From assembly GCA_041891055.1 (NCBI GenBank), contig CP169075.1, forward strand, positions 52,001 to 116,000: a stretch of DNA of 64,000 nucleotides, written 5' to 3'. The first letter of the stretch is position 1; each line of letters opens with the position of its first letter. This stretch comes from Halorutilales archaeon Cl-col2-1 (GTDB lineage: Archaea; Halobacteriota; Halobacteria; Halobacteriales; Afararchaeaceae). Below the pieces are notes generated by a model. That model made no database searches. It was not told the origin of the DNA and saw only the letters and a list, made by a program, of their open reading frames with translations. Positions 5,852 to 59,769 of the stretch are shown here, piece after piece. A program made the translations under genes and the position numbers.

Positions 5852-5970
5852 AGCTAACCAACATTTTCGAAATATTGTCTAGAGATGTTGGTTAGCTAGG
5901 GAGAGAAATACACTCCAAAGCGGGTGTGGTGGTGTCGGTGTTAAGCTGGGTCAGGTGACTCAGGTTAACA
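5852..5970. repeat. ~120-bp composite repeat, copy 1 (site A 5852-5897, CTCCARAGCGG motif, palindrome B 5939-5970)
   Basis: Near-identical direct repeat of 6741-6860. Confidence 0.9.
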
Positions 5971-5976
5971 GTTAGT

Positions 5977-6251
5977 AAGTCTCCGTCCTCAAGGAGTCGT
6001 TCGCAAATCTTTGATTTGCGACTGTAGCCAATCAGAGATTGGCATACCTACGAGAACGGAGTTCTCGGGACGGGAGCAAATCTGTGATTTGCGAGCCTGC
6101 GAGAGCAAAGCTCTCGGGACGTTGACGAATCGCAGAGCGATTCGTTCGCACACCAGAACGCCTTGCGTTCTGGGGACGTTCGTCAAACTTTGTTTGACGT
6201 GCCAACAAGATCGGAGATCTTGTGACGGGGCTTGACCCCGAGGCGGTTGAC
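5977..6251 (+). mobile_element. Non-autonomous IS200/IS605 derivative filled with a tandem array of twin-hairpin micro-elements
   Basis: Left-end-like CCGTCCTCAAGGAGT (cf. 10030-10042); right end CGGGGCTTGACCCCGAGGCGGTTGAC identical to the end of the tnpB element at 60934; nine triloop hairpins between. Confidence 0.75.
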
Positions 6252-6438
6252 TTTTTCCTACTCCCGTTTTACCGTAAGCAAATATATTCTTGGGAGGGTC
6301 ACAGTTCATCACAGGCTGGAGAATATCAACATACTCAGAGATCTCCTCGTCTCTTTCTTCGATGTCTTCCGGCTCATAGTCTTCTCGAAGTGGGGTCTCA
6401 GTACGGAAAATCGATTCGTCCGGCTCAAAGAGTCCCAT
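6252..6438 (-). pseudogene. orc1: orc1/cdc6 N-terminal fragment truncated at Walker A
   Basis: MGLFEPDESIFRTETPLREDYEPEDIEERDEEI...NIFAYGKTGVGK aligns with the intact Orc1 at 45635, then reads into the IS605 end. Confidence 0.88.
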
Positions 6439-6460
6439 GAAAGATTATCATACATAAAAC

Positions 6461-6724
6461 CACCCCCTTCAAGTGTTTCAAGTGTTTCAAATGTTTTACT
6501 TCTTTAAATACCCCCACACCCCACTGTTTCAAGTGTTCCTAGCTTAAAACAACACTCTCAATAGTTAGTTAGTTATTAAAAACAAAATATTTAATATAAT
6601 ACAATACATCTATTAGGTTTATGGGTAACTGAGACTTATTTTCAGTATTCTAGTATAGTGTCTAAATAGTATACGGATAGAATACCCCTAGTTATCCAGA
6701 ACAGTTGAAACGATGGGGTGGGGG
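6461..6724. promoter_or_regulatory. Replication origin 1 (G-string ORBs flanking an AT-rich DUE)
   Basis: Inverted CCCCCACACCCCACTGTTTCAAGTGTT (6511-6537) and AACAGTTGAAACGATGGGGTGGGGG (6700-6724) around an AT-rich tract; three TTCAARTG units next to the orc1 start. Confidence 0.8.
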
Positions 6725-6740
6725 AGTCTTTGATTTGCTG

Positions 6741-6860
6741 AACTAACCAACATTTTCGGAGAATTGTCTAGAGATGTTGGTTAGCTAGGGAGAAAAATAC
6801 ACTCCAAAGCAGGTGTGGTGGTCGTTGGTGTTAAGCTGGGTCAGGTGACTCAGGTTAACA
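6741..6860. repeat. ~120-bp composite repeat, copy 2 (site A 6741-6786, palindrome B 6829-6860)
   Basis: Direct repeat of 5852-5970. Confidence 0.9.
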
Positions 6861-6869
6861 GGGGCGGCT

Positions 6870-7328
6870 CTACTCGAACAGATCTTCGAGAGCCTCGTCT
6901 ATGAGATCGTCGACGTCTATACCTTTCTTTTTAGCTACGTAGAGAGCTGCGGCTTCGATGTTGACTGCCTGGAGTTCTCGTTTTGCTCGGTTGATTTCGG
7001 CTACTGTCTCCTGTTTTTCGAAACCGTTGGCGATGAGTCTGTTCAGTATCTGGTCGAATAGGTCTTGTTCTCCAGTTATTGTCTCTACGTCGGGAGGCGA
7101 ATAGCCTGTAGTATCTACCTCCTCGACAGAGAACTGTACTTGGACGTCGTCTTCTTCTCCTGTAGGTTCGAGTAAATCTCTTTCTTTTGCGGCTTCGAGG
7201 ATCTTTTCGGCTTCGTCTGGGTTGTACCAGTCTCTATCACGAGATAGAGAGAAGATGAACTCCACTTGGGTTAGAGTGTCTTTGTCTCTTATCTTGAAGG
7301 GAGTGGCTACTACTTTTTTGAGAGTCAT
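6870..7328 (-). CDS. DUF2240-family archaeal protein
   Basis: MTLKKVVATPFK...EFIFSLSRDRDWYNPDEAEKIL signature, 152 aa. Confidence 0.75.
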   Translation of the reverse strand: MTLKKVVATPFKIRDKDTLTQVEFIFSLSRDRDWYNPDEAEKILEAAKERDLLEPTGEEDDVQVQFSVEEVDTTGYSPPDVETITGEQDLFDQILNRLIANGFEKQETVAEINRAKRELQAVNIEAAALYVAKKKGIDVDDLIDEALEDLFE

Positions 7329-7415
7329 CTCTTGAGAGTTAGTTCACCCACGTAGTATGTATATCTTCATCATCCTCAAAAAGGTTAAATAAAAATAGAG
7401 TATTTTGTTATATGA

Positions 7416-9909
7416 ATGTCCGAAGACCTGTCTTCTATTTACGAAGATGTCCGTGACATAGGCTTTTATGCAGGTCAGATAGAATTAGAGAAGACTATTG
7501 AGGGGAATAGTCCCACTTTCGGTGACACTGAAGATGTAGTTAACGAGGTAGGCAAAGAAGTCCTTGACTCCATCGGGATAGACCGCCTGTACAAACATCA
7601 AACAGAAGCGATAGATGCTGTAAACTCAGGGGACAACATAGTAATAGACACACCAACTGCATCGGGTAAGACGATGACCTATGCTATCCCCATGATAGAA
7701 GAAGGTTATCAGGACAACACGAAGTCGATCTACATAGCCCCTCAGAACTCTCTAGTCAATGATCAGACAGAATCAATACGGGAGATGACTTCTTCTATAT
7801 CACCTTCTCCCTTTGATTCTGACTCACAGAATCTTGATAGATTCTCAGATAATAATCTGCCGCCAGGTTCTGTTTCGGTAGCAAGGTATACCGGACAGTT
7901 ATCCCAGACCGAGAAACGGAATGTGAGAAATGAAGAGCCCGAGATCCTGCTGAGTAATCCGGAGATGCTCCACATGTCAGTTCTGCCTTACGCTGAAACA
8001 CACTGGCGGTGGCTTTTTGAGAATCTCAGATACGTGGTTCTCGACGAAGTTCATAGATACCGAGGATACTTTGGGATACATCTATCACTGATACTTCGAC
8101 GTCTAAAGAGAAAAGCCGAGACATTCGGAAGGGATCTGCAGTTTCTATGTGCCTCCGCTACTATACAGAACCCTATAGAACATGCTAGCAGAGTAACTGG
8201 AGAGGATGATGATTCATTTACTCATATCTCCGAGGACTACAGTGCCTCTGGAGACAAACACTGGATGTTCTGGCAACCTCCGGAGAAAGATTCTAAGTAC
8301 ACTAATTTTGACTCTGAATCGGGAGACAGTATTAGTAACAGAAAGTCAAGCCACTCGGAAGCCACCGATATCTTCAGCTACTTTGTGATTGATAGATACC
8401 AGACTCTTGTGTTTACCCGAGCACGTCAAGGTGCAGAATATTATTCTATGGTATCGCAGAGAAGACTACAGGAGATGGGGCATAATGACCTCGCAGAAAA
8501 AGTAACTGCGTACGAAGGAGCGTTAACTGACGACAGACGGGAGGAGATAGAAGAAGGTCTAAAATCTGGTGACACATTAGGTGTCTGGAGTACGAATGCA
8601 CTGGAGCTTGGGGTTGATATAGGCGGTCTAGACGTTGTTATCTTAGACGGATATCCTAAGACCGTCATGTCTACGTTTCAACGAGCTGGTAGAGCTGGAC
8701 GAGGTAAAGACGACAGCGCAGTCGTTTTAGTTGCAGGTAATGACTCTCTCGATCAGTATATCCTCAGAAACCCCGACGATCTCTTCGAGGGCGATCCAGA
8801 GAGAGCTATGGTTAACCCCGCAAACGAGAAGATACTAAAAGACCATCTCGCCTGTGCAGCTTCTGAAAATCCTCTCGAGCTTACTGATAGAACATACTTC
8901 CCCAGTAACTTCATCGATATTGTAGAGGAGATGATCGAAGAAGGACGTCTTGAAGAGAAAGGTACGAAGTCAGAGTCAGAGTCAGGGTCAGGGTCAGGGT
9001 CAGGGTCAGATAGTAGCCACACTAAATTAGAAACCACAGAGGATGGCCCTCACTATTCGATGGCTATCCGAGACATAGACAGTCAGATGATACAGATAGT
9101 CGACAAAACAACGGGGTCGAATATAGCTGAGCTCCAGAGAAGAGACGCTTACCGTGATGCTCATAGAGGCGCCTATTATACCCACCAAGATCAGAATTAC
9201 AAAGTTGAGAACCTCGACTTGAAGGAGAGGCCGTGCCGAAGTAGTCCCTACTAACACTGACCAGATCACACAGACTGTGAGTGAGAAGCAAATAGACATA
9301 CTAAAGAGTAGAAATGGTAAGGTTCTAACTCTTGATACAGGAGATGAAGACGCATATGTCTGGTTCGCTGACGTAAGGGTCAAAGAGTCTTTTCAGAAGT
9401 ATCTCATCCGTGATAGAAGGACTCAGGAGGTATTAGAGGAGTATCCTCTCGATCTGCCGGATATAGAGGTAGAGACTGAAGCTTTCTATATCACTTTACC
9501 CGACAGTCTCAGACGAGATCTGATGGCTGGTATAGAAAGTGGTTCTGAAGATGACGATAAATACCTCGGAGGTCTACACGCTGCTGAACATGGTCTAATA
9601 GCTATGACTCCTAGAGAGGTTCTGTGTGATAGAAATGACCTCGGAGGACTATCTATATCACGTCACGACGGGACTAACGAAGCTACAATATTTGTACACG
9701 AAGGGATAGAAGGTGGTGTAGGTATATGTAAGGAAGCTTTTGAGTCTATCGAGGATCTGATACAGAAGTCTCTTGATATGATAACGACGTGTGGATGTGA
9801 GTCGGGCTGTCCCTCGTGTGTCTACAGTCCTAAGTGTGGTAATAACAACGAGACTATAGATAAAGAAATGTCAGTAGAGATTTTAGAGAAGCTTGCTGGG
9901 AGTCTGTGA
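7416..9909 (+). pseudogene. Hrq1/MrfA(YprA)-type DEAH helicase with DUF1998 Zn domain, split by a +1 frameshift near 9228
   Basis: TPTASGKT, LDEVHRYRG, STNALELGVDIG, QRAGRAGR in 7416-9254; LHAAEHGLI and CGCESGCPSCVYSPKC in 9277-9909; removing one base in GAG-A-GGC joins LKE-GRAEVVPTNTD. Confidence 0.85.
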
Positions 9910-9968
9910 GAGAGATTGTCTCTAGATCTCCAGAGCGGTAGTGTGGCCTCTATTATTTCAACTTGTGC

Positions 9969-10478
9969 AGGCGGAGTCCCCGTTCAGAAATCTCAGATTT
10001 CTGAGCCCGCGAGATCGGAGATCTCGGGACGTCCTCAAGGAGTGTTGCGAATCAGAGATTCGCATACGTATGAAAATCTCCGATTTTCAACACACCGCAG
10101 TCCGCTTACGCGGACAAGAAGCGCAGTAGGGCGGGGAGGAAGCCGTATACTTATTGGACTTCGGATATTACCTATAAGTACGTCCATCCGAGCCAACAGT
10201 TGTTCGGATGGATGGGCACCAGTCAACGTCTCCAGATCTTTGATCTGGATGGCTCGGAAATCGGAGATTTCCGAACGTGCCCCGAAGTCCGGAACAATGA
10301 CCCTGAGTGCGGTTCGACCGCCCACGCAGTACGGAACGGTACTGCGGTCGAGGGAGAGAACACGGACAAGCCCCGTTCGTGAATCGAAGATTCACGAGCA
10401 TGCTGAGGGAACCTCAGCATACGCCCTCCACGAGCGAGTGGGCGCAAGCCCCGAGCGAAGTAGGGCGGGGTTGTTGAC
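9969..10478 (+). mobile_element. Non-autonomous IS200/IS605 element with several inserted twin-hairpin units
   Basis: Left-end hairpin GGCGGAGTCCCCG..TCCTCAAGGAG..AGTAGGGCGGGGAGGAAGCC; right end AGCCCCG..CCCT..AGTAGGGCGGGGTTGTTGAC; no credible ORF. Confidence 0.7.
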
Positions 10479-10608
10479 CCATGCTTGACTACTCGGTCTA
10501 AGTGATTCACTCAATGGTTCTCGTTATGCACTTAGAACTACATATGAGAATAAGATAAGTATTAATTGTATAAAAAAGCTTAATCAGTTTCATTTCTATT
10601 TAGCTAAT

Positions 10609-13600
10609 ATGTCTGATATACAAGGGCAAATTAAGGATGCCCGAGAGGATCTCCTTGATATGTCTTTACGAAATAGATTACTTAATTTTAAGGAGTATAA
10701 AAAGAGCACGGCAAAAATAGTTAATGAGCTTCCTTCTGAAGTTTACCAACACCTAGTTATTGATCGAAATAAGATGTTATTTTTACCTCAGGGAGAAACT
10801 CTAACTTACGAGGAAATATTACCTGATATAGAAGATATTATTCAAGTTATAGAACATGATAAAACTTGTCGTCTTTGTCAAAGTGAGCCCGAAGTAATTG
10901 ATGATAAAACTGGGTTTCTAGAAGATATTAACTCTGTACAGGGTGGGGATCATGGATACGGACTGCCTATAAAAGAAATAAATGAATTATCGGATTTAAC
11001 AGAAACTGATTCAGATAGAAGAGAAGAATATTCAAATAGATACCTCCAAACACCTCATAAAGAATCAAACCTCCAAAACCGTCTATACAGTATAACAAAA
11101 GACTCTGAAGCTCTTATCGAAGATGCTGGATATAATGCTTTATATCTCGCTGTCGGGTTTCTTAAATGGAGAGAAGCAGAAGCACAGGAAGGATCTCACA
11201 AAGCTCCTTTGATTCTAATACCTGTTAAGATGGAGAGAGGTGGAGTTCGTTCTGATTTTAGCCTACAGTGGAATGGTGAAGAAATTACTGGTAATCTATC
11301 ATTAGATCTTAAGCTTTCTGAACAAGGGTTTGATCTTCCCGAGTTTACTAAGCCTGAAGAGAAAATCGAAATAAAAGAGTATTTAGAACTAATCGACGAA
11401 AATATCTCTGATTTTGATGGATGGGAAGTACTACCTGAAATACAGTTGGGCTTCTTTGACTTTACAAAGTTCCTGATGTATCAGGATCTAGATCCAGATA
11501 ATTGGCCTTCTAATCAGAAACCATCTAACCATCCATTATTAAAAGGAATACTCGATAATGAGGAAACTCTATCTAATCCTGAGCGGTTTAATGAAGAAAA
11601 AATAGATGAAAAACTATCCCCAGTAGATGTCCACAACGTTAAGGACGCAGATCCAAGCCAGATATCTGTAATTGAAGACGTAAAAAGAGGTAGAGACCTA
11701 GTGGTTGAAGGCCCACCTGGAACTGGTAAATCTCAGACTATAGTGAATATGATTGCTGAGCTTCTATCTGAAGATAAGAAAATACTTTTTGTCTCTGAAA
11801 AGATGGCTGCACTAAATGTTGTTAAAAATAGGCTTGACTCTGTTGGGATAGGTGACTTTTGCCTTGAACTTCACAGCGAAGAAGCAAATAAGTCAAAGGT
11901 TCTAAACGAATTGGAACGAGTATCTAAACTTAGTATTGAAGATCCCCATATACCTAAAGAGACCTTTCATAAGCTAGAGAGAAAACGTAAGAAGTTAGAT
12001 GAATATTCTGATGCACTTGGGTCTCCATTTGGTGAATTGAATAAAACTCCATATCAGCTATTCGGCGAAAAAGAAGAAGCATATCAGCATTTTGAAGAAA
12101 TTGGGAAAGATTTTCCTAAAATAGATATATCTAATGCAGAATCTCTATCGCCACAGGAACATACTGAATCTTTGAATACTATTAAAGAATTAAATAGCCG
12201 CCTCAAAAAAGTGCATCCTATTGAGGATAATCCTTGGTATGGATGCCATCCCGGCCAAATATTGCCTGATGAAAGAAAAGAAATAGAGGAGCTTTTACGA
12301 AATAGCACAAATTCATTAGATGAAATTAAAAAGATTAATGAGGGACTTGAGGAAGACTTCGGAGTGAAACGAGCCTCAACATTAAATGAGCTTGATAAAA
12401 GTATTGAAACTATTGAAATACTTGCTGAAGATTGGGATGTTGAACAAGAGACCCTACAGAAACCTGTTTGGAGAGATAATCCAGAAAAGGCTATGGAATT
12501 AGTAAATGATGTAGAAGAATTTCAAGATCTTCGAAGTAATCTAAGTGGGAGGGTAACTATTTCTTCAACTGAAAGTCCAGAGGAACGAATATCTAAGTAC
12601 AATAATCTACACTCCTCTTTCAAAGAATGCCTCCGCCCAGCTTGGAATGATCTAGAAATATCAGATAGACCAGAAGATATAGACGCAAAGATTGAGAGTA
12701 TTAGCGAATCAATTGATGATATTCGTAAATGGGAAAAGAGTATAAGAGAAAGTATACATACTCATAAAGCAAATAATCTTGCAGATCTTCATAATCTAAT
12801 TAAAATTACAAAACCAATCTCTGAGAGTATAAATATCCATGAAGAATTAATACGAGATTCTACCTGGAACGAAATGCCTGCTGAGGTAGAATCACTAACA
12901 GAAAAAATTGAGAAGAAAAGAAAAATTCAGAATGATGTTGGTAAAAGAGTAGATACTGAACGAATTGATAGAGATCTACCTGATTTACTCACCCGCTATA
13001 GGGAATTAAGCAGCTCATACACTAGATTTGTTCAACTGGAATGGTACAATATTAAGAGTGAAATTTCGGATCTTTATATGGGGGATGTACCTAGTAAAAG
13101 TAAGAAGATAGAGAAAGATATTGAGGAGTTAATGAAATTAGATAATTTAAAAGAAGAGTTGCAAGACTATGATGGAGAAGGTCAATATTTGTTAGAACCA
13201 GTTTGGAATGGAGTAGATACAACCCCCGAGGAGATTAGAGAGTTTTCAGAGTGGATGCTTGAGATACGTAAGGGAATTAAACGGGATCTTATTACGGAAG
13301 ATACTATTAAAATAATATCTGAAAGTAATACAAAGTATAATTTAGATATAGCTGAAGGAGAGCAAAAAATAGAAAATTTGGAGGGAGGGTTTGAGTATCT
13401 TAGTAGACTAGGTTTAAACTCAAGGAAGATATTTGAAAAAGCATCTGACGATAATGGATTAAACCATGTTTCTTTTGAGTCAATTAATCCTGTGATAAAT
13501 ATATTACAAGATATTTCAGACATTTATGTAGAAAAGGTTCCAAATGTAGTAAATAAGGTTGATAGTGACATTCAGGATTTAATTAAACTCAATGAAAAAA

Positions 13601-16299
13601 GAAAAAATATAAATAAGTCTTCGGGCGGTGACTCCTTTGGGCATATTTGGGAGGGTGAAAATAGTGATATAGAACAATTAAAAGAATTCTATGACTGGAT
13701 GTCAAAATTTGCTCAAAAACTTGATCAAGGAGAATTAACGGAAAAATCTGTAGAAGTATTTTCAAATAATTCGATGGATAGCGAGATTGAAGAGAATAAA
13801 CAAGCAATAAATAAATATAAAGATGATTTTGATGGATCAATTAGGGAACTCGATAAAAAGCTTCAGATATCTTCTGAGGAAGTTTGGGGTAGTGATATAT
13901 ATGAAGTAGAACTCGACTCTATTTCATCTAAATTAAAGACGCTTGAAAAGTCCTCTGAAGATCTAGAAACCTGGTCGAATTTCGATTATACAAGGAAAAG
14001 CACCCGTGACACTATAGCTGAACCAGTAGTTGAACTAGTTAATGAAGGAAAGCTAGCTCCTGAAGATATTGTCCCTTGCTTCAAGGGTAATTTAGCAGAT
14101 AGTCTCCTAACTTCAGTGCTAAAAGAGAGAGAGATATTAGCTCAGTTTGATGAAGAACTCCATGAAGATCGAATTAGAGACTTTCAAGAGCTAGATAGAA
14201 AAAGCATTAAAATTAACCGTAAACGGGTTATCTCTAAGCTGATAGAAAATAAACCACAATTGATGCAAGGAGCATCTAAATCTAGCCCTGTAGGCACACT
14301 ATTACATGAATTTGGAAAAGAAAGACTGCATAAGCCGATACGGGTACTTCTGCAAGAAGCTGGAGATCTAATTCAGGATCTAAAACCTTGTTTCATGATG
14401 AGCCCACTTAGCGTGGCTAAATACTTCGATCCAGGAACAATTGACTTTGATGTTGTTATTTTTGATGAAGCAAGCCAAGTACGTCCAGAAGATGCAATTG
14501 GTACTATACTTCGAGGTGATCAGCTTGTACTTTTTGGAGATACAAAACAACTTCCACCAACTAGTTTCTTTGATAATGTAACAGAGCCTCAAGACTCCGA
14601 TGAGAAATGGGAATTCAAAATGAAAAATGTTGAAAGCATATTGGATCTCTGTCGATCCTCATTACCCTCTAGACGTTTAAAATGGCATTATAGAAGTCGT
14701 CATGAATCACTCATAGCAGTCTCAAACGAGGAATTCTACGACAATGAGCTTGTAGTATATCCATCCCCTATCCAAGACTCTGAAGACCTTGGATTAGAAT
14801 TCAGACATCTCCCCGATACCACGTATGATAGAGGAGGGAGTAGTACAAATAGAGAAGAAGCTAGAAAAGTTGCCGAGGCTGCTATTCAACACTATCAGGA
14901 CAATCCATCAAAGAGTCTAGGAATAGGAACGTTTAGCCAAAAGCAACAAAATGCAGTACTGGAAGAGGTTGAAAGACTAAGAAAGGAAAATCCAGAAATG
15001 GATAAGTACTTCTCTCATGACCAAGAGGAGAATTTCTTTGTTAAGAATCTTGAAAGAATCCAGGGAGATGAAAGAGACGTCATTTTCATAAGTGTTGGTT
15101 ATGGGCGTGACTCAGACGGTAAATTACATAATAACTTCGGGCCGCTAAACCAAGACGGTGGATGGAGACGCCTAAATGTATTGATCACACGAGCTAGAGA
15201 GCGTTGTGTTGTGTTTTCAAATTTTACTGCAGACGAATTAGATGTGAAGTCATCTAGCTCAAGAGGCGTTAAAAGCTTTAAAACATTCTTAGACTATGCT
15301 GAGAATGGAAATCTTAGGTCAATTACCGAAGCTGGTAAAGACCCTGAATCACCTTTTGAAAGAAGTGTAATAAAATTCCTTCAAGAGGAAGGATATGAAG
15401 TACATCCTCAAGTAGGAAGTGCGGGTTTTAGAATAGACCTAGCTATTGCAGATCCAGAAAATCCTGGAAGATATGTTTTAGGAATAGAATGTGATGGGGC
15501 ATCTTATCACTCATCACCTGTAGCACGTGAACGTGATAGACAAAGGCAAGAGATATTGGAAGACAGAGGATGGGATATATATCGAATTTGGTCAACAGAC
15601 TGGTATAGAAATCGTGATAGAGCGAAGGAAAGCCTTGTTGAAGAAGTTGAGAAAGCACTCAACAGAGGCGCATTAACAGTGTCTTCAGATATGAACTCAA
15701 AAATAGAAGAAGATTCTGAAATAACCGAATTAGAAGATACTGAGGGATCGGATACATTCTCTTTAGAGGAATTGTCGACAAAATACGAAAAAACTCAGAA
15801 TATAGGCAAAATAAACCTGAGTAATCATAATCCTGGAGAATTATATTCACCTATTGAAGAAATAATTAAAACAGAATCGCCAATTCATACAGATCTTCTT
15901 ATTCATAGACTCGTATCCAACTCAGATGTTAGTCGGGCAGGAACGAAGATCCAAGAAACAATAAAAAAAGCAGCGGATCGGCTATCAAGGAATGATAAGA
16001 TAGAGAAGAATGGAGAGTTTTTGTACTATAAGGACAAAGAAATTGAAGTCCGAGAGCGCAAGAGTAAAAGGCTAAAAGATATAGAATGGATATCGGAGGA
16101 AGAAATTGAAAAAGGGATAAGAAAGATACTTCAGAATGAGATTGAGACGTCTAAAGACGATTTAATCAAAGAAACTTCTAGGTTATTCGGGTTTGGAAGA
16201 ACTAGTCAAGCCGTCTCAGATAGAATATCAGAGATAGTTGACAGTCTTCATTCATCAAAAAAGATAGAAGAAGAAAATGGCAAGTTACGCTTAAAGTGA
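10609..16299 (+). CDS. Hhe-type defence protein: DUF4011 - SF1 helicase - Vsr/DUF559-like nuclease - DUF3320
   Basis: LLDMSLRNRLLNF, GPPGTGKSQTI, FDEASQV, GDTKQLPPTSFF, WHYRSRHESLI, RRLNVLITRAR, RIDLAI..GIECDGASYH..RIWSTDW; visibly AT-rich. Confidence 0.9.
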   Translation: MSDIQGQIKDAREDLLDMSLRNRLLNFKEYKKSTAKIVNELPSEVYQHLVIDRNKMLFLPQGETLTYEEILPDIEDIIQVIEHDKTCRLCQSEPEVIDDKTGFLEDINSVQGGDHGYGLPIKEINELSDLTETDSDRREEYSNRYLQTPHKESNLQNRLYSITKDSEALIEDAGYNALYLAVGFLKWREAEAQEGSHKAPLILIPVKMERGGVRSDFSLQWNGEEITGNLSLDLKLSEQGFDLPEFTKPEEKIEIKEYLELIDENISDFDGWEVLPEIQLGFFDFTKFLMYQDLDPDNWPSNQKPSNHPLLKGILDNEETLSNPERFNEEKIDEKLSPVDVHNVKDADPSQISVIEDVKRGRDLVVEGPPGTGKSQTIVNMIAELLSEDKKILFVSEKMAALNVVKNRLDSVGIGDFCLELHSEEANKSKVLNELERVSKLSIEDPHIPKETFHKLERKRKKLDEYSDALGSPFGELNKTPYQLFGEKEEAYQHFEEIGKDFPKIDISNAESLSPQEHTESLNTIKELNSRLKKVHPIEDNPWYGCHPGQILPDERKEIEELLRNSTNSLDEIKKINEGLEEDFGVKRASTLNELDKSIETIEILAEDWDVEQETLQKPVWRDNPEKAMELVNDVEEFQDLRSNLSGRVTISSTESPEERISKYNNLHSSFKECLRPAWNDLEISDRPEDIDAKIESISESIDDIRKWEKSIRESIHTHKANNLADLHNLIKITKPISESINIHEELIRDSTWNEMPAEVESLTEKIEKKRKIQNDVGKRVDTERIDRDLPDLLTRYRELSSSYTRFVQLEWYNIKSEISDLYMGDVPSKSKKIEKDIEELMKLDNLKEELQDYDGEGQYLLEPVWNGVDTTPEEIREFSEWMLEIRKGIKRDLITEDTIKIISESNTKYNLDIAEGEQKIENLEGGFEYLSRLGLNSRKIFEKASDDNGLNHVSFESINPVINILQDISDIYVEKVPNVVNKVDSDIQDLIKLNEKRKNINKSSGGDSFGHIWEGENSDIEQLKEFYDWMSKFAQKLDQGELTEKSVEVFSNNSMDSEIEENKQAINKYKDDFDGSIRELDKKLQISSEEVWGSDIYEVELDSISSKLKTLEKSSEDLETWSNFDYTRKSTRDTIAEPVVELVNEGKLAPEDIVPCFKGNLADSLLTSVLKEREILAQFDEELHEDRIRDFQELDRKSIKINRKRVISKLIENKPQLMQGASKSSPVGTLLHEFGKERLHKPIRVLLQEAGDLIQDLKPCFMMSPLSVAKYFDPGTIDFDVVIFDEASQVRPEDAIGTILRGDQLVLFGDTKQLPPTSFFDNVTEPQDSDEKWEFKMKNVESILDLCRSSLPSRRLKWHYRSRHESLIAVSNEEFYDNELVVYPSPIQDSEDLGLEFRHLPDTTYDRGGSSTNREEARKVAEAAIQHYQDNPSKSLGIGTFSQKQQNAVLEEVERLRKENPEMDKYFSHDQEENFFVKNLERIQGDERDVIFISVGYGRDSDGKLHNNFGPLNQDGGWRRLNVLITRARERCVVFSNFTADELDVKSSSSRGVKSFKTFLDYAENGNLRSITEAGKDPESPFERSVIKFLQEEGYEVHPQVGSAGFRIDLAIADPENPGRYVLGIECDGASYHSSPVARERDRQRQEILEDRGWDIYRIWSTDWYRNRDRAKESLVEEVEKALNRGALTVSSDMNSKIEEDSEITELEDTEGSDTFSLEELSTKYEKTQNIGKINLSNHNPGELYSPIEEIIKTESPIHTDLLIHRLVSNSDVSRAGTKIQETIKKAADRLSRNDKIEKNGEFLYYKDKEIEVRERKSKRLKDIEWISEEEIEKGIRKILQNEIETSKDDLIKETSRLFGFGRTSQAVSDRISEIVDSLHSSKKIEEENGKLRLK

Positions 16300-41631: not shown

Positions 41632-42070
41632 CTTTACACCGACGCCTTACGGCAGTTTGTTAGCTTTCGTCTCATTAGAGCCATCTCCGAGAAACTCTCC
41701 GCTCACTCACCCACGGAGTCTTCGTGTTCTTGCGATTCTAGTGAAAATAACCTAGACCGACCTTTTCTGAGAACAACGTCGAGAACCATACCAAAAATCC
41801 ATCCTCAGCTCATTCTACGGATCCTCTGAGAAAGTCTTCTATAGAGTCTCTACCTAACTCCATTTGTCTGTTCTCAAGAAAAATCAAAGACAGCGTATAC
41901 ATAGTGCTATATGTAGTTCTATTCTCCTCTCCACGAGACCTACAGATAGAATTCTATCTCTTCTCTAGAGGTCGTTACCCCCGTAGGCAGTCTATACCGT
42001 CCAAGGTTTGTTCTGTCCAATTAGCTAACGCTATTCAGGTAACAAGTCGTCTGAAAGGTGCTGAGAACAG

Positions 42071-43220: not shown

Positions 43221-43282
43221 AGAAGAAGCTAACGAACGTTTGTTTCTAGAGAATTCACCGAAGATGTTGGTTAGCTCAAGAG

Positions 43283-44142: not shown

Positions 44143-44223
44143 TACTAACCAACGAATCTAAAATTTGTCTATAGATGTTGGTTAGCCCAAGTGTTAATCT
44201 GAGTCACCTGACTCAGCTTAACA
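44143..44223. repeat. Site A (44143-44187) directly adjoining palindrome B (44192-44223)
   Basis: TACTAACCAACG-N21-TGTTGGTTAGCC; TGTTAATCTGAGTCA-CC-TGACTCAGCTTAACA. Confidence 0.85.
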
Positions 44224-44836: not shown

Positions 44837-45114
44837 GTTTCTGTAGTTTCTTCTCACAGAGTATCGTCATACGCACGTCTTATTTTTTACAGATATAGAC
44901 AGAAAGTATTTAACACATCTAAGTATACTCATGTTTGGGGGTTGTTGAGGACTAGATTCAGGGATTATTCCAATCCCCGCCCTCCTTCCAATAACCATTT
45001 TTAGGATGCTCCTTTCCAGAGCGGGGTGATTGTACTAGCTAACCAACACTCCTAGAGAATCTTCGAAAATGTTGGTTAGCTCAAGGACTAATCCATCCAA
45101 GGAGTGTTTCCACT

Positions 45115-45596
45115 AACACCACCGTGTCAAGTATTTCAAGTCAAAGATTTTTTTAAGTACACACACACCCCACTATGTCAAGTATTAGAGAAGAAAACTA
45201 GCTAACTCAATTAAGCTGTCGTTAAACTCTTATCAGACTCTTCTTCACTTTCTATCTGACCTTATACTAACTAACTAACATGTCAGTAATATTATACTAC
45301 TCTAGAAATAGTATTATATATATAGAACCCAGATGATCCAGACGAAACCAAGCCTATCATAGGGAAATATTCTTCCTTATTTTTCTATTTCTTTTAATCA
45401 GATCAAAGATCTTTTTATCTATTCAACGACCTTTAGCACTCATTCCTACGTCTTCTTGCGTTTATACTTGACATGGTGGGGTGTGTGGAGTGAATATTCC
45501 TGCAGAGCGTTTCTCCAAGTTATACTTGACATGGTGGGGTGGGGGTCATTTATAAAGAACCCCATTTACTTGACATACTTGACATACTTGACACTA
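45115..45596. promoter_or_regulatory. Replication origin 2 (G-string ORBs, AT-rich DUE)
   Basis: CACACCCCACTATGTCAAGTA inverted against two ATACTTGACATGGTGGGGTG; (TACTTGACA)x3 before orc1. Confidence 0.85.
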
Positions 45597-45634
45597 CGGT
45601 TTTATATACTGTTAGTCATAATACCATTCCTAAG

Positions 45635-46882: not shown

Positions 46883-47026
46883 TTAGTTGGGTTCGAGTAG
46901 CTAACCAACACCTCTAGAGAGCTTTCGAAAATGTTGGTTAGCTCCCCCAAGGTAACCACGGTGATATATCTGAGTCTTCCCTTAACCTCTCGACCTCGAC
47001 GCCCACGATCCCGTTGAAGCTGTCCA

Positions 47027-52830: not shown

Positions 52831-53094
52831 CGCGGCCGTCGACCGTTCGATATCCCACCGATGGCTATTGAATCCTCCACGGTGGGATGTCCCTTCACAC
52901 GTTGCTCTCAAGTCCACAATTCTCGACGGTGAACAGGAGCTGGTCGAAATAGTCACCGAAACCAGCGCCGCTGACGGGTTCGACCGCTTCGATGGGAATG
53001 ATCTCTACTGCCACGCTCGAAGGCGCGGGCGGTCTCTCAGTCATAGCTAACCAACATTTTGGACAGATAATATAAAATCTGTTGGTTAGCTCAA

Positions 53095-53367
53095 TCAGTA
53101 GAGGTACTCTACGAGCTTGTCGACTCCTTCATCCACTTTGCCTTGTCTGACTTCACAGACATAGTCCGTAATCATCTCAGGCTGTACTGACAGTACGGAA
53201 TGGGGAACGATAGAGCTGTCTTTCGGTGCCTTCCTGTCGACGTAATCTTCCTCTGTCAGTGGGATTCTCTCTTCGTACCACGTCCTCGTTGTTAGTCCCA
53301 TCTTGAACGGGTCTGAAGCGAGTACGACATCACCGCGTGAAAGGTTAGAGAAGTCCTTATCCTTCAT
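53095..53367 (-). pseudogene. PemK/MazF-like toxin with an apparent in-frame deletion
   Basis: RGDVVLASDPFK joined directly to MGLTTRTW; the RPxxV(I/L)S catalytic strand is absent. Confidence 0.6.
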
Positions 53368-53686: not shown

Positions 53687-54299
53687 TAGTTATGAATACG
53701 CCTTCGGGACTCTTGTATCTTTGTATCATTGTATTTACACGGATGGTCTTTTAGTCTGACCACCCAGCAAAGACGACTCCCCCACAGACGAGAATTCACT
53801 GTGGTCAACCTTGGGATAAGTGTGTTCTCCGTCAGAGCTAACCAACAGATCTAGAGATTCGCCAGAAATGTTGGTTAGCTGTTCAGACCTCACTTCTAGG
53901 GGTACCTCCTCCTATATTAGACGTTAGCCCCGGAATACAGGCTATTTTACCCGTCAGACTCGCATCACCCCTACAAAACCTGGGGGTGTTGACCACGGGG
54001 TAGATCTCGACCCATGAGGAATCCTCAGAGGATGTTCTATCGGTCACGGTTCCCAATCTAAGCCTGTCGTAGCGAGCTACACGTGTAGCACACATGTAAT
54101 CTCACACGTATGCGGGCTATTTCAGACATGTACGTCTGACGTAGTTTTATCAAGCCACAGAATACTACTCAGTAATAGCAGATCAACACCACCGAATACC
54201 CGCTTAGTACACAGTATCAAGTAGAGAATAGAGAGTCACACCCGTACCATACACACGAACACCGAGGTATGAGAACGTCACAAGCAGGTATTACAAAGT

Positions 54300-54919: not shown

Positions 54920-55031
54920 GGTGAAAAATTATACTTCCTGTTATTTAAAGCTAATCAGGAGCATAGTTGGATTACATATTCGACATGGATAACCAACATT
55001 TTCGAAGACTCACTAGAAGCGTTGGTTAGCT

Positions 55032-55150
55032 CTCACGTCGAGGCGACACGTCAAACGCGCCGATCCACGCCCCAGCGCGTCTCACCTCGGGGTTTAGAGC
55101 CGTTGAGACAGCGAAGATTCGCGACTGACGGGTATGAGTCTGATATTAGA
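55032..55150. repeat. ~120-bp structured repeat following site A; second copy 59526-59645, diverged partial copy 58608-58668
   Basis: CTCACGTCGAGGCGACACG...CTGACGGGTATGAGTCTRATATTAGAG nearly identical in both full copies. Confidence 0.9.
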
Positions 55151-55480
55151 GTTAAGAGAAAACGAGGGGTGTACTCAAGACGAGCTTGTCGAAAAAGTCG
55201 ACGTAGAGGACGAACAAGCCGAGACAGCCGTCGAGAACTTGCTCACAAACGGGGTGATAATGGAGACCTCAGACGGGATGAGGGTGGTATAAACTCACTC
55301 GAACTCCTCAAGCTCCTCTATATCTGGTTTTTCCATCTCTTTTACATCCTCTATGTCTTCCTCAGACATATCTGTCTCTTCGAGGAGTTCATCTTGAAGC
55401 TTGGTGTGTTTTTCTGTCTTAGACATAACCAGTCACCTCTAACAGGTATTCTTCTCTCGTTCTGAGATAGTCTTCAGCAT

Positions 55481-57090
55481 TTGACATCCTCACCCGCCTG
55501 AAGGCGGTACGAATTCTTCGAATTCGTTAGCCATCCAGATCAAAGATCTGGAGACGTATGCTGAGGTTCCCTCAGCATGCTCGTGAATCAAAGATTCACG
55601 AACGGGGTGAATCCCAGTTGGGATATTAAGGTTTGAAGTCTACCCAACGGCTTCTTGTGGTTCGAATCCGCAAGACCGATCATACAGGTAGACCCCGGGT
55701 TGTGCCAAACAACCGATACTCCTATCTTCTTGCTCAAAGCAAGAAGACTCAGAGTTACCTTCGGACTTCTGTCTTATATTTTCAGCTCCGTTAACATCCG
55801 AGTTAGCTACCGTATCACAGTCATCACAAACATATAGTCCACGTTCAACTCTCTGGTTACCATCGAGCTTACCACAGACACAACACGTCTTTGACGTGTT
55901 CTCTTCGTCTATCCTCTCTAGCTCAATACCACTCATCCTCGCCTTGTACTCTAGCATCCCGGTAAAGCGGTCGAACGCCCACTTGTGCAGATTCAGGTTA
56001 CCTGAGTCCCCCCAGTTTCTGGCTTCTCCATCCTCGTCCTGACGAATATCCCCAAGATCGCCTACGGCGATCTTTCCAACGTCTCTCTTCTTACATTCGT
56101 CTACCATGTGTTTAGACAGTGAATGGAGGAAGTGTCTACGTCTCTCTGACTGTAAGTGGTCTAGACGAGTACGCTTGTTACCGTCCGACTTATCGAGTTT
56201 AGCTTTCTCTTTCTCGAAGTAGTAGTTGTTCTGGCTGAGTTCGTTACCGGGGTAGAGAACGGTATCGCCGTTCTCGAACGAGAGAGCAGCGAAGTTACTG
56301 ATACCTAGATCGATTCCTACAGTCTCTTCTCCCGAGTCTTCTACTTCTATCTCTTTCTGTACGACTAGGTGTAACTCCCACTTTTCTTCCTTTTCGTCGT
56401 ATACAGCACGAACCTGCTGTATACTTCCGTCTATCTCGTTGTCTGGTCTGTGTAAGTCGTACTCTATGAGGATGAAGTCGCTACGTTCTTCTACTTGTTT
56501 GTGATTCTTGCCTTTAGAGAGACGTAGTCTGTTATTGTCAGAATCGTGTTTTATACCACGATTCTTCCATGTGACCGTACTCCTAGGATGTTCTTCGTGG
56601 ACTAGATTACCAAGGTCATCGTAGTACCAACGTTTGCGGTAGCCAGGAGGATTATCCCTGCCGTCGTCGGAGCCGTACCAAGACTGGTAGGCTTCAGAAA
56701 GCTCTTCTAGAACTTTCTGACTGGACTGTGAATGTAAGTCCTCGTATCTTTCGTGTTCTTTCAACTCGGTCTTCAACGTATCTTCTTCAGGGATCTCTCC
56801 TGTCTTTTGCCAGACTTCTCTAGTGTAGTATCTGGCGACATTCCATAGTTTCGAGGCAGACCAACCATGCCTGTCTAAATCACTCTCTACTTGAGAGTGA
56901 TTTAGTATCTCGGCTGTTACTGTTAGGTTGGTCTCCATGACTACACGTAGTTATTGTATTCGTATATTATTAAATCTTACTTGAATATGAGTTTCGTTGA
57001 ATATCCAGTTATGTCTATTAGAATGGTTTGGTGAGTAGTTTAACGGATTCATCATGACCCTGAAGGGTCAGGTATTCTCCTGTACTACGT
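55481..57090 (-). mobile_element. tnpB: IS1341-type (tnpB-only) element; TnpB 55640-56938
   Basis: GIDLG, AVGDL, DEENTSKTCCVCG..CDDC, SDVNGAENI; left end ACGTAGTACAGGAGAATACCTGACCC after TTAT; right end GAGGATGTCAA with hairpin insertions. Confidence 0.9.
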
Positions 57091-57220
57091 ATAAGTGTTT
57101 GAGATAATGCTCAGGAAAGTCCTCGACGTCGTGTAGCTTCTTCCGGATCCTCTTACTCGTCTCTGTTTCGGCTTCTCGTAGCCAGTCGGCAGCACGCGCC
57201 GACACGACAACGTCGGTCAT
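57091..57220 (-). pseudogene. RelE/ParE-like toxin truncated by the tnpB element
   Basis: MTDVVVSARAADWLREAETETSKRIRKKLHDVEDFPEHYLKHL, then the IS left end. Confidence 0.7.
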
Positions 57221-57223
57221 CTT

Positions 57224-57559
57224 CTACTCTTCGAGCTCCTCGTCGAGTTCCTCTAAGGGTATGGCGTTTTCTCTGTCGACTTCCTCGACGCGTTTCTTAG
57301 CTTCTTCCGAGAGACGAGGTGCTACTTTAGCCCACCACACGACAGCGTTCGCACCTGCTTTCTTCTTTCCGACAAGGTCTTCCTCGTGCATATCCCTAAG
57401 TCGGCGGTAGACAGCGTCGCGACCGATAGGTAGTGCGTCAGCTAAGTCAGACGCAGTTAGAACGGGCTCATCGGCGCGGTCGAACAGTTTTAGTATATCC
57501 TGCTCGGTGACCTTCTCCTCGAATTTACCACCCTCGTCGCGAGTCCTTTCAGTCGACAT
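57224..57559 (-). CDS. HTH antitoxin
   Basis: LTASDLADALPIGRDAVYRRL..VVWW; C-terminal IPLEELDEEL; 3 bp before the toxin start. Confidence 0.75.
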   Translation of the reverse strand: MSTERTRDEGGKFEEKVTEQDILKLFDRADEPVLTASDLADALPIGRDAVYRRLRDMHEEDLVGKKKAGANAVVWWAKVAPRLSEEAKKRVEEVDRENAIPLEELDEELEE

Positions 57560-57919
57560 ACACGTTGTTATGCTCTTCTCCCACTTAACCGTTCATGTCG
57601 TAGTGAGTCGTTAACTTTAATACCATTCACTACGTAGTGAGTGGTAAGAGACGCAGGATGCCCTAGACGAGAACAACGACTGAGAGTATCAGGTATCTCT
57701 TTGTCTTCTTCACGCTTCTTTCGGGATACGCAGGTCAGTCCCAAGTAGCTTTCCCGTCTGAGCTAACCAACATTTTGGACAAATAGTATAAGATCTGTTG
57801 ATTAGCTAAGAGAAACACATCACCCGAGGTCAACTATAAGCTTACATCTGACCTCGAAGGCGTGGTCTTCGCCGTTAGAGTGGGAAAAGCTATAACAACC
57901 CACACTCCAAATTATAACT

Positions 57920-58060
57920 ATGTCCTTAGAAGAAGACGTCGACCATAACGGGGAAAAACTTGCCAACGGAGACACAGTATCAGAACGTGTTGAAAAGGTC
58001 GACATCGACGAAGAAGACACCTGTTCTACTGACGAAATGCGTGAGCTTCTCGGGCTTTGA
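57920..58060 (+). CDS. Small acidic antitoxin-like peptide (46 aa)
   Basis: MSLEEDVDHNGEK..CSTDEMRELLGL*, upstream of a RelE-like gene. Confidence 0.5.
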   Translation: MSLEEDVDHNGEKLANGDTVSERVEKVDIDEEDTCSTDEMRELLGL

Positions 58061-58075
58061 TTCTATTCTGTGTAA

Positions 58076-58421
58076 ATGAGTGGAGAAGATATTACTTCAG
58101 TTGAGCTCGTTGAGAAATGGGTATACAAGGATCTCCAGTCTGGTTTTACGGCTAGAGAACAAGAAGAAATTCTTGATGACCTAGATGACTTGGAGGATCA
58201 ACTGACAGTCTGGAGTAGATCTCTTCCAAACGCTGTTGAACGACGTTGCCGGCAAAACAGTTTATCGACGCAGGCAAGGAGGTTTTCGCAGCTACCTCAT
58301 ACGCCAAGGAGACACATTATATTGTATCGGTATAGGTAAACGAGATACAACATACGAGCGTGACCTGAAACAGATAGAAAAAAGAGCAGATTCGTACGAT
58401 CCTGAAAATAAAGATAAGTAA
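58076..58421 (+). pseudogene. RelE-like toxin split by a frameshift near 58237
   Basis: VYRRRQGGFRSYLIR..CIGIGKRDTTY lies in a different frame from the N-terminal half. Confidence 0.65.
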
Positions 58422-58728
58422 CTCCATACGACATCAAGGTCAGCGGCGTCTAATCCCAGGGGTCTATCCAAACTCTTCATTCGACTGAGACACCGAGTTC
58501 AGCGACCTATCGGAGAGTATCGATCTGCTCCGGATCAGAGAAGATCCTGCCTAGGGATCTAAGAGCTAACCAATATTTTCGAAGACTACTAGAAGTGTTG
58601 GTTAGCTCCCACGTCGGGGCGACACGCCGCTCTCAGGATCCACGTCCCAGGGCGTCTCACCTTGGGAGTCAGGCAGATTTTCATTACGCTAAGGGTTTAG
58701 TAGTACCAGATTTTATTGTAATACAAGA

Positions 58729-59016
58729 ATGTCAAGTAATACAGACAGTGGAGATGTCATCCACGTCTCTAAGAAAGGGCAGGCTACTATCCCGAAGGAT
58801 CTCCGCGAGAAATTCGGTATCGAAACACCAGGGAAAGTCCTAATCCACGAGGAGGACGGTAAGATAGTAGTCGAACCCCTTCCTTCGGTCAAGGATATGC
58901 AGGGAGTACATGGCGAAGAGTACGAGGAGGGCGAAGTTCTCGAACATCTTACTGAGATGAAAGAGGAGGACAAGAATCTCGAACGGGAGCAAGACGAGAA
59001 ACTAGGACGACACTGA
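58729..59016 (+). CDS. AbrB/MazE-type antitoxin (VapB)
   Basis: VSKKGQATIPKDLREKFGI. Confidence 0.9.
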   Translation: MSSNTDSGDVIHVSKKGQATIPKDLREKFGIETPGKVLIHEEDGKIVVEPLPSVKDMQGVHGEEYEEGEVLEHLTEMKEEDKNLEREQDEKLGRH

Positions 59017-59471
59017 TGACTGACTACGACTATGACTATGTCTTCGACACCGAGCCTCTTATCGCATACCTCTACGACGAGCCCGGGGCTTCGACTGTGA
59101 CTCGATGTCTCCAGAAGATCGAAAGCGACGAAGATGCGGGGACAATCTCTCATGCCACTGCGACCGAAATTGTCTACAAGATCGCCCGTCTCGAAACAGG
59201 CGACCCGAACCACACCTCACCCAACGAAACTGAGTACAAAGCCGGTGAACGCGATCTGCGTGTCCTACGTGGCTTTGGATTAACTGTCGAAAACCCATCG
59301 TGGAGTACTGTCGCACGTATCAAAGGCGAGGGTGGTATCTCCCTCGGGGACTCGTATGCCGCCTCTCTCGCAGTAGAAGAGGATGCTACTCTCGTAGTTG
59401 GGGCAGACCCCGAGTTCGGCGATCTATCCCAGAGTATCGACCTACTCCGAATCAGAGAAGATCCTGCATAG
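59016..59471 (+). CDS. vapC: PIN-domain toxin (VapC)
   Basis: VFDTEP, TATEIVY, SLGDSY, GADPEF; TGATG overlap. Confidence 0.9.
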   Translation: MTDYDYDYVFDTEPLIAYLYDEPGASTVTRCLQKIESDEDAGTISHATATEIVYKIARLETGDPNHTSPNETEYKAGERDLRVLRGFGLTVENPSWSTVARIKGEGGISLGDSYAASLAVEEDATLVVGADPEFGDLSQSIDLLRIREDPA

Positions 59472-59769
59472 GAGTCTAAGAGCTAACCAACAGATCTAGA
59501 GAAATATTAGAAATGTTGGTTAGCTCTCACGTCGAGGCGACACGTCAAACGCGCCGATCCACGCCCCAGCGCGTCTCACCTCGGGGTTTAGAGCCGTTGA
59601 GACAGCGAAGATTCGCGACTGACGGGTATGAGTCTAATATTAGAGCGTCGTAGTACTGTGGTTAGATATTAGTACTTAATATAGTAAGTACTGGCATACT
59701 ACAAATCTAACATTAGAACGAACCAAACACCACCAAATCCCGCTAATCTATATAGCAAAATAGAATTTA

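Follow-up and report, generated by a model that had tools for sequence, protein, structure and literature searches.

The window analysed here, a stretch of 64,000 nucleotides from the Halorutilales archaeon Cl-col2-1 (assembly GCA_041891055.1, contig CP169075.1, positions 52,001 to 116,000), carries a palindromic repeat of about 45 bp that recurs between small gene modules and is the subject of this report. The window belongs to a 116-kb contig (C2) of 49.6% GC, in a genome of 2.06 Mb whose main contig (C1) has 55.4% GC. As the ends of C2 repeat ends of the main contig (C2:114533-116000 vs. C1:1933563-1935030 and C2:1-423 vs. C1:231-650; 99.8% and 90% identity), C2 may be either a plasmid or a chromosomal island. 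Twelve such sites had been listed in a preliminary description of the window, and all of them were recovered. The exact pattern AGCTAACCAACA-N15-35-TGTTGGTTAGCT was matched by six sites (5852, 45037, 46899, 53045, 53836, and 59481) and by nothing in any of 100 dinucleotide-preserving shuffles, and the remaining six (6741, 43227, 44143, 54987, 57761, and 58564) carry 1–3 changes per 12-nt arm. With up to two mismatches allowed, the 12-mer half-site was found 26 times vs. 3.3 expected occurrences. The sites measure 44–50 bp, and their spacers are polar, as had been claimed: nine of the twelve have TTTYNRR at one arm and CTAG(A) at the other, the layout read inward being TTTYNRR, about seven variable bases, and a CTAG-containing heptamer. 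A spacer unlike that of the other sites, TTTTGGACARATARTATAARATC (henceforth type B), is found at 53045 and 57761, and the spacer of site 44143 contains CTATAG.

Genome-wide, 32 sites were counted, namely 20 on the 116-kb contig, one on a 10-kb contig, and 11 on the 1.9-Mb contig, where nine are grouped in three short regions. About 27 of the 32 copies are similar over the whole 45-bp unit including the spacer, a feature of this genus. CTAG is strongly depleted on the main contig (observed/expected 0.26) yet present in 23 of the 32 sites, and the window's contig has an excess of TCTAGA (47 observed vs. 28.8 expected). In agreement with the claim that the sites are intergenic, no window site lies within a Pfam-supported gene and 31 of the 32 genome-wide lie outside the chosen open reading frames (ORFs), the latter count being based on an ORF heuristic.

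Read from left to right, the first site (5852..5897) has exact arms around the spacer TTTTCGAAATATTGTCTAGAGA, with a flank resembling origin recognition boxes (ORB) and an orc1 N-terminal fragment (5989-6438) on its TCTAGA side; its neighbour at 6741..6786 has one mismatch in the left arm and a right flank identical to that of 5852. No full site was found from 6787 to 43226, and the reported absence of sites from 10–42 kb holds to that extent; a truncated thirteenth site had been missed, however, of which AGCTAAC of one arm remains at 42023..42029, preceded by a typical site flank that is common to four chromosomal sites. In metagenome contigs, a complete arm stands at this position. Convergent mrr and HNH genes end on either side of the site at 43227..43276 (50 bp, left arm with two mismatches), each with its stop codon 6–7 bp away, and the degenerate site at 44143..44187 (left arm TACTAACCAACG) separates the HNH gene from the divergent lrp gene. 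The right arm of this degenerate site forms one end of an opposite-strand joint described below, the other end being the left arm of the exact-armed site at 45037..45081, which marks the border between the lrp module and the origin/orc1 module. A full orc1 gene (45539-46882, Pfam) stops 16–17 bp before the site at 46899..46943 (exact arms), which is followed by a CRISPR (clustered regularly interspaced short palindromic repeats) array. On the minus strand, a remnant of the 5′ end of a gene for a protein of ~120 amino acids (aa), possibly DUF6788-like, was found at 53013..53044; its ATG abuts the type-B site at 53045..53091 (exact arms), whose spacer GATTTTATATTATC on that strand forms a TATA-like box, and on the opposite side the stop codon of a 90-aa ORF is 3 bp off. 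The site at 53836..53880 (exact arms) lies 2–3 bp past the stop codon of a 70-aa ORF, with the start of a helix-turn-helix gene 150 bp on, and the site at 54987..55031 (arm mismatches 2 and 1) has at its right a repeated flank (Y, with ACCCCGAGGTGAGA inside) and then a TnpB element. The second type-B site (57761..57807) is situated 17 bp ahead of the start of a 58-aa ORF and 12–13 bp past the stop codon of a 66-aa ORF. The last two sites enclose a MazE-type antitoxin and PIN toxin pair (58729-59471), one lying ahead of it (58564..58607, 44 bp) and the other, with exact arms and flank Y at its right, 10 bp past the PIN (vapC) stop codon (59481..59525).

Proximity to stop codons, which had been reported for several genes, was therefore confirmed for mrr, HNH, orc1, and vapC and was also found for three unnamed small ORFs (2–3, 3, and 12–13 bp), but the label pemK was not confirmed, the ORF at 53095-53367 having no Pfam match. 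Of the cargo described between the sites, mrr, an HNH-HhH nuclease, lrp, the full orc1, and the antitoxin–toxin pair were confirmed; of the two origin modules, the one other than that with the full orc1 holds the N-terminal fragment of orc1. Several winged-helix genes are also found among the window modules.

The arms were then followed through the class Halobacteria. In 401 sampled genomes, the pattern YTAACCAACA-N-TGTTGGTTAR (10-nt arms, gap of 18–28 nt, at most one mismatch) was found in 53, compared with two of 401 for the reversed control. One genus had sites in 20 of its 22 genomes, with up to 21 copies per genome. The carriers among the matches listed were mostly Haloarcula species, and the sites were often on plasmids; other listed carriers were Halorientalis, Halonotius, Halorubrum tibetense, a Natronocalculus plasmid, Halorhabdus, Salinibaculum, a metagenome-assembled genome (MAG) of Candidatus Halobonum, and Haloquadratum. 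Variant arms (TTAACC...GGTTAA) were seen in Halobacterium and Natrinema, and with up to two mismatches, one match was found on pHV1, four on pNG500, and six on PHS1. The foreign loci analysed were 107 stretches listed from a public collection, which holds at least that number; their spacers are unrelated in sequence and mostly 20–22 nt long, with a full range of 17–25 nt. Only one other genome represents the same family and genus, and this sister genome has 11–12 sites with the identical spacer type, several of them at contig ends. When metagenome contigs were scanned with the genus-type pattern, the two matches obtained were unrelated, and a literature search found no description of the motif. 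The arms are hence not private to Cl-col2-1, and the palindrome appears to be old and widespread in haloarchaeal plasmids.

When the ORFs adjoining the foreign sites were clustered, a single family, encoding the ~120-aa protein with the C-terminal sequence ...TKTIDGRxYYYLQWREGxKVKSQYVGPV, stood at a fixed distance from them, the gap between site and ATG being 3 bp in six of 11 members and 6 bp in one more; orc1, PadR, ArdC-like, and integrase genes showed no fixed distance. Among loci retrieved via the protein instead, the coordinates were read as placing a site at the gene start or close to it in about 26 of 29, and on annotated plasmids, a site lies upstream of the gene in four of five (pNG500, Halobacterium PHS1, Natrinema, and Halorussus) and is degenerate in the remaining one, pHV1. 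One of the sampled genomes has a family member whose coordinates are exactly those of the pNG500 gene, which identifies the sampled class as Halobacteria. The C-terminal domain of the family occurs in 282 of the 401 genomes. The full-length family (E ≤ 1e-30) was found in 23 genomes, of which 21 have sites, compared with 31 of 377 others, although the genomes are related and the counts are not independent; the other two carry sites with two mismatches upstream of the gene. Across 20 spacers read in the direction of the gene, the AT fraction amounts to 0.6–0.85 at −22 to −27 from the ATG and drops to 0.1–0.35 at −18 to −21, beside the proximal arm, with the AT-rich box reaching −22 to −29. An AT-rich box at such a distance from the ATG is the geometry of a leaderless archaeal promoter, and by its base composition, the spacer upstream of the ~120-aa gene appears to have this geometry. 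The arrangement extends to a bacterium, since a Synergistaceae MAG contig encodes a homologue (hhalign 94.8%, E 5e-8) that is preceded at 20–85 bp by two sites, one of them with TATAAT in its spacer. The homologue overlaps a nucleotidyltransferase gene (Pfam NTP_transf_8) by 4 bp, with an McrBC gene adjoining, and the pair (locus L044 3144-4153) looks like a two-gene operon of the toxin–antitoxin style. On PHS1, five sites were examined in a co-directional gene cluster: three of them lie between a 2-bp overlap and 11 bp past the upstream stop codon, and all five lie 14–95 bp ahead of the next start, which appears to be the same site layout in a place where no shuffling is evident.

For the ~120-aa protein, an AlphaFold model (mean pLDDT, i.e., predicted local distance difference test, 75) comprises a long helical N-terminus, an acidic linker, and a three-stranded sheet (helices 13-52 and 66-75, three strands within 83-113). 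A homodimer was predicted with a score of 0.58, compared with 0.11 for the best of three controls; among proteins solved as same-chain pairs, 20 of 30 attained that mark, and among those solved as single chains, one of 23 did. The runs agreed in at least 98% of contacts with a partner pLDDT of at least 82, and the predicted interface consists of residues 2-44, with the N-terminal helices packed antiparallel. Such packing would keep the two C-terminal domains well separated, which half-sites at a distance of three helical turns would require. The dimer model supports DNA binding without showing it. In one member of the family, the C-terminal domain is fused to an HNH nuclease, and the Atlas feature match (0.94) was to clusters in which 32–74% of members carry DUF6788. 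An integrase arm-type fold was also considered for this protein and found no support in Foldseek.

Arms that are conserved class-wide and have one fixed context, the promoter of a small gene, point first to a protein-binding operator. The reading we prefer, which we hold to be about evenly poised between right and wrong, is that the sites are palindromic operators enclosing a promoter, made for a small dimeric plasmid protein, and were amplified in this genus at module borders. Two invariant half-sites of 10–12 bp (YTAACCAACA and TGTTGGTTAR) would be bound by the protein and, since their centres are ~31 bp apart, roughly three helical turns, would lie on one face of the DNA, bracketing a short promoter-like spacer. 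We infer the probable partner to be the plasmid-encoded ~120-aa protein, whose own leaderless promoter would lie within such a site. On this view, the protein would be a plasmid regulator that controls its own gene with the site as operator and also acts at many other plasmid genes, in the manner of KorB. In this genus, one spacer variant (TTTTCGAA...TCTAGA) would have been multiplied to about 32 copies, placed at one or the other end of almost every small module of the 116-kb low-GC replicon or island. As every module border then has identical perfect arms, we propose that exchanges (inversion, replacement, and spacer flipping) found their joints there. Two features usual for such an operator were found: the site overlaps the promoter of the ~120-aa gene at its start, and further copies are found beside unrelated genes on one replicon (20 on the 116-kb contig, six on PHS1, and four on pNG500).

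Several points weigh against the operator reading. The assignment of the partner protein derives from the position of its gene; Pfam and NCBI-type searches returned no family for the protein, and Foldseek returned no fold match against the PDB better than an E-value of 0.47. By its Atlas match, the C-terminal domain may be DUF6788-like, and that it binds DNA is a guess. The gene was not matched in the sister genome, whose assembly of ~120 contigs is broken at these palindromic repeats, despite 11–12 sites there, and seven genomes have at least three sites but no full-length copy of it. About half of the window sites are unable to drive a gene: 43227 has a stop codon on either side, and 45037, 46899, and 59481 face the 3′ ends of genes. 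Genome-wide, about 12 of the 32 sites lie within 40 bp of a stop codon, compared with three to four within that distance of a start (ORF heuristic). CGAAA and TATT are promoter motifs, and if the spacer is read as a rightward promoter (CGAAA, then TATT), it would drive genes at just five to six of the twelve window sites. Finally, an operator by itself leaves unexplained why joints fall exactly in the arms, why spacers are inverted relative to the same flank, and why the whole 45-bp variant spread within the genus.

The joints in question concern the recombination hypothesis of the preliminary description, of which the position of sites at module borders and the occurrence of homology breakpoints inside them were confirmed, and the co-occurrence of a dedicated recombinase was not. 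Among paralogous copies, four sites have a common origin-type right flank of 75–120 bp and unrelated left flanks, four chromosomal sites have another flank in common, and flank Y is 97.8% identical over 138 bp, beginning within the site. Both flanks are common to 58564 and 59481, yet their spacers are different; the type-B spacer of 57761 is inverted relative to the common flank when compared with the copy at C2:34082. Furthermore, contigs C2 and C3 carry circular permutations of one unit, which is made up of a site, flank X, the recombinase gene, and its upstream region. The alignment of related replicons had been suggested as a check; of twelve sites in the sister genome, four have one-sided homology ending at the site, five are orthologous on both sides (one with a 580-bp indel abutting the site), and three have no homology. 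At one sister-genome site, the left flank and spacer match one copy and the right flank a different one, at 99% identity. Some breakpoints between the two genomes of the genus fall outside sites. In other genera, an 83-aa gene always has a site 5–14 bp past its stop codon, and in 28 pairs of such loci, the gene is similar in 27 and the upstream region in 12 (eight over at least 200 bp), compared with similarity beyond the site in four and over at least 200 bp in none. For close pairs of the ~120-aa gene, the downstream side is common in four of four and the far side of the site in none of four; a fifth pair was excluded as belonging to the same record.

Metagenome contigs of close strains (95–99% identical), assembled from two runs of one study, contributed seven joints touching sites among the 15 of 61 joints listed. 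The robust one is an opposite-strand joint (44176/44187 to 45049/45038, 162–173 letters long on its shorter side and ambiguous over 11 letters of the arms), which connects the right arm of 44143 with the left arm of 45037 and therefore inverts the lrp module relative to the orc1 module. The other six were read as site variants, completions of truncated arms, or alignment ambiguity. Thus, 54999->58576 was not accepted as a rearrangement, being an ambiguity between near-identical spacers; the apparent 6-kb inversion 53080/53093 <-> 59493/59480 reflects a different site variant at 53045 in those strains; and 42029->45052 and 42029->46912 represent completion of the truncated arm. In a handful of cases, then, modules have been exchanged at joints that fall in the arms. 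Spacers move without regard to either flank, which places the exchange points there and not at a central crossover. An enzyme may make these exchanges on purpose, although this seems rather unlikely, or the joints may be rare events at identical palindromes that are kept by selection.

The strongest competing explanation is a cassette system in which the sites are crossover sites (19-7-19 in this genus) at which a recombinase moves, inverts, and swaps modules, the candidate enzyme being a small, catalytic-domain-only tyrosine recombinase that is perhaps aimed by the ~120-aa protein. It accounts for the arrays spaced at 0.8–1.1 kb with one or two genes per interval, for the one-sided homology ending in sites (paralogues, sister genome, 83-aa gene loci, and ~120-aa gene pairs), for the opposite-strand metagenome joint within the arms of the lrp and orc1 modules, and for the circular permutation between C2 and C3 of the recombinase gene with its upstream region, site, and flank X. 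A 197-aa tyrosine recombinase adjoins the sites C2:27418 and C3:8145, with a fragment beside C2:33203; ACCCCGAGGTGAGA lies 40–55 bp from five sites; and in a single further genome, a recombinase orthologue has its stop codon within an arm. The search for a co-occurring tyrosine recombinase that had been called for found no dedicated one, however: members of the small recombinase family occur in 240 of 401 genomes, no recombinase follows the distribution of the sites, the nearest relatives have a site at one of eight loci and a relic at one of eight, and the 107 listed foreign loci hold one weak recombinase match. The small recombinase was accordingly dropped as the dedicated enzyme. The 20–22 bp between the arms differ from the 6–8 bp crossover region of tyrosine recombinases, and the inner 7-nt “arms” are conserved in this genus only. 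There is no orientation rule (five of nine neighbouring pairs inverted, four direct), spacers were flipped or exchanged independently of the flanks (58564 and 59481; C2:34082 and 57761), some sister-genome breakpoints are away from sites, and the metagenome support is drawn from contigs assembled in a single study, where four of the seven listed site joints are more plausibly variants of a site or completed arms. On balance, the cassette explanation seems rather unlikely. A broader variant would make the site the border element of an unrecognised haloarchaeal plasmid exchange system, in which the ~120-aa dimer marks and pairs sites, a nuclease or small catalytic-domain-only tyrosine recombinase cuts in the arms, and promoter-bearing single-gene modules (orc1 origins, toxin–antitoxin pairs, nucleases, regulators, and the recombinase gene itself) are inverted, swapped, and collected; we regard this as unlikely, and if true, it would be an archaeal counterpart of integron and pdif cassettes with a different site architecture.

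The remaining explanations received far less weight. Centromere-like partition sites in the role of parS or hpaS, dispersed over the replicon and bound by the adaptor of a ParA ATPase, would fit the 107 listed foreign loci, where a site lies 41–187 bp upstream of parA in five of eight parA genes, as well as pNG500, where a site follows parA and a small partner gene, and PHS1, where one site lies 63 bp upstream of parA. Dispersed centromere sites have a precedent in HpaB/hpaS3 of Haloferax pHV3, which lie upstream of unrelated genes according to PMC13722703. Identity with hpaS3 was nevertheless rejected, since pHV3, which bears six hpaS3 sites, has no arm match in 437,906 bp at up to two mismatches; the adaptor described in PMC13722703 is a ribbon-helix-helix protein encoded directly after hpaA and not the ~120-aa protein. 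Most sites are away from parA, no parA was found among the window ORFs scanned with Pfam, and a partition role is considered quite improbable. Marginally weaker still is the case for an RNA-level element, i.e., a bidirectional hairpin after stop codons that ends or stabilises transcripts. Many sites do lie 0–17 bp past stop codons, here and on Halobacterium PHS1, and each strand folds into a 12–13-bp stem (−10 to −13 kcal/mol, z-scores −5 to −8 vs. shuffles), but the arm sequence is invariant class-wide, whereas compensatory changes would be expected of a structural element; the context conserved best lies ahead of a start, where the site would be untranscribed if the mRNA is leaderless; and no Rfam family matched the sites at the gathering threshold, the 32 CRISPR repeats being the only matches. 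The slimmest chance is given to a miniature inverted-repeat transposable element (MITE) or a unit like repetitive extragenic palindromes (REP), ~45 bp long and repeatedly inserted in intergenic DNA, which the preliminary description had kept as an alternative. The similarity of the whole unit in ~27 of 32 copies, the spacer in both orientations relative to the same flank, and a genome with 24 TnpB matches and one Y1 transposase would agree with it. The sites show no target-site duplication, though, the flanking AG...CT belonging to the palindrome; no empty site, and no clean presence/absence, was found among the paralogues, the sister genome, or the 12 metagenome indels listed out of 28; the arms stand at the same promoter across families and in one bacterium, unlike mobile-element ends; the single Y1 transposase is distant from all sites; and nearby TnpB elements end in sequences other than the site arms.

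The motif ACCCCGAGGTGAGA was located at C2:27363, 27502, 28158, 33295, 107080, and 111574 and at C3:8230, and it flanks the site near the small recombinase gene on both sides; it may be an accessory binding site. Its interpretation as attP arm-type sites was discarded, as it fits five sites only and the permutation between C2 and C3 gave no consistent integration model. The truncated arms at 42029 and in locus L133 hinted at a common cut after CTAAC; this idea was also set aside as too weak, since the TAA common to L132-L134 is the recombinase stop codon. The small tyrosine recombinase genes carry a conserved palindrome of their own, ACACGG...CCGTGT, which runs up to the start codon (L132-L135 at ~1975-2003; C2 28080-28110).

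In line with the preliminary description, no recombinase was found in the window (no PF00589 match); its mobile genes are two TnpB genes and one DDE transposase gene. The TnpB genes are of the IS200/IS605 type and lie at 55640-56938 and 60983-62212 (minus strand); for the first, an assignment to orc1 was rejected on the basis of its Pfam match to TnpB. The left end of the first TnpB element (~57095-57098) is joined to 44191 and 53907 in metagenome contigs, and as these positions are 4 and 27 bp from sites, copies of the element adjoin sites in related strains. The transposase gene (50077-51381) is of the IS4 type and, because the summed depth of its metagenome contigs (~800–3800) far exceeds that of its neighbours, must be multi-copy or common to many organisms. 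The CRISPR array at 47526-49624 begins ~580 bp past site 46899 and comprises 32 repeats (Rfam CRISPR-DR24). Its spacers differ from those in the metagenome contigs, and the joints 47489->49522 and 47489->49586 were read as CRISPR spacer differences. One metagenome spacer variant at 47489 starts with TGGTTAGC, the outer end of a site arm, which may be chance or a spacer directed against a site-bearing element. The region 7416-16299, the beginning of the block earlier labelled as defence, encodes a DEAD-box helicase with a winged-helix domain, a protein with an MrfA zinc-binding domain, another ORF, and also a 1896-aa protein with DUF4011, AAA_11/12, REase_MTES_1575, and DUF3320.

Haloarchaeal megaplasmids are mosaics, and the rules of their assembly and regulation are largely obscure. 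The site offers a searchable landmark of promoters and module borders that is present in about one in eight sampled genomes, with up to 21 copies per genome, and in the model plasmids pNG500 (Haloarcula marismortui) and PHS1 (Halobacterium salinarum). Together with the site, the ~120-aa family, which also occurs in bacteria and has no assigned function, constitutes a directly testable protein–DNA pair. The sites are likewise the place to look for module exchange, given the origins, toxin–antitoxin pairs, and defence genes in between. If the arms are crossover points, this would be a new kind of archaeal cassette system; if they are not, it would still be a plasmid-wide regulatory site that had gone unnoticed.

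The likeness to integron attC sites that had been put forward was not supported in its details. An attC site has end boxes R″ (RYYYAAC) and R′ (GTTRRRY), an imperfect stem with extrahelical bases, and a length of 57–141 bp. The ends of the present sites are CTAAC...GTTAG-like, sites lie past the stop codons of cassette-sized genes, and arrays have a spacing of ~1 kb, as in integrons. Yet AGCTAAC and GTTAGCT agree with the end boxes at six of seven positions each (G for Y, C for R), the outer arm bases vary in other genera, the stems are perfect over 10–13 bp in a total of 40–50 bp, and arm conservation extends beyond the R boxes; site polarity is mixed, and the best match to the integron integrase model TIGR02249 in the genome scored 24.8 bits, compared with a cut-off of 265. 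The comparison with pdif modules fared similarly. In pdif sites of Acinetobacter plasmids, on which XerC/XerD act, two ~11-bp arms surround a centre of 6–8 bp (11-6-11). As there, short inverted-repeat sites bracket small modules, including toxin–antitoxin pairs, on a plasmid-like replicon, and related replicons differ in module content at the sites; here, however, arms of 10–12 bp are 20–22 bp apart rather than 6, orientation does not alternate, and the arms would also form a conserved promoter-operator. The best genome match to the XerA family reached 151 bits vs. a cut-off of 220 and contains an internal TGA.

The KorB operators (OB) of IncP plasmids are palindromes repeated about a dozen times, found at the promoters of backbone modules and in the regulator's own operon. 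The sites described here resemble them as a short palindrome repeated over a replicon, in or upstream of promoters of unrelated backbone modules and at the promoter of the candidate regulator itself. They differ in that half-sites ~31 bp apart enclose the promoter, that the candidate binder is a small protein without a recognised fold and not of the ParB family, and that many copies lie past stop codons or between convergent genes, with rearrangement joints in the arms. With hpaS3/HpaB, as described in PMC13722703, they share the dispersal of cis sites over a haloarchaeal secondary replicon, upstream of unrelated genes and linked to parA; hpaS3 is AT-rich in that account and bound by a ribbon-helix-helix protein, and its replicon pHV3 is without the arms that characterise the present sites.

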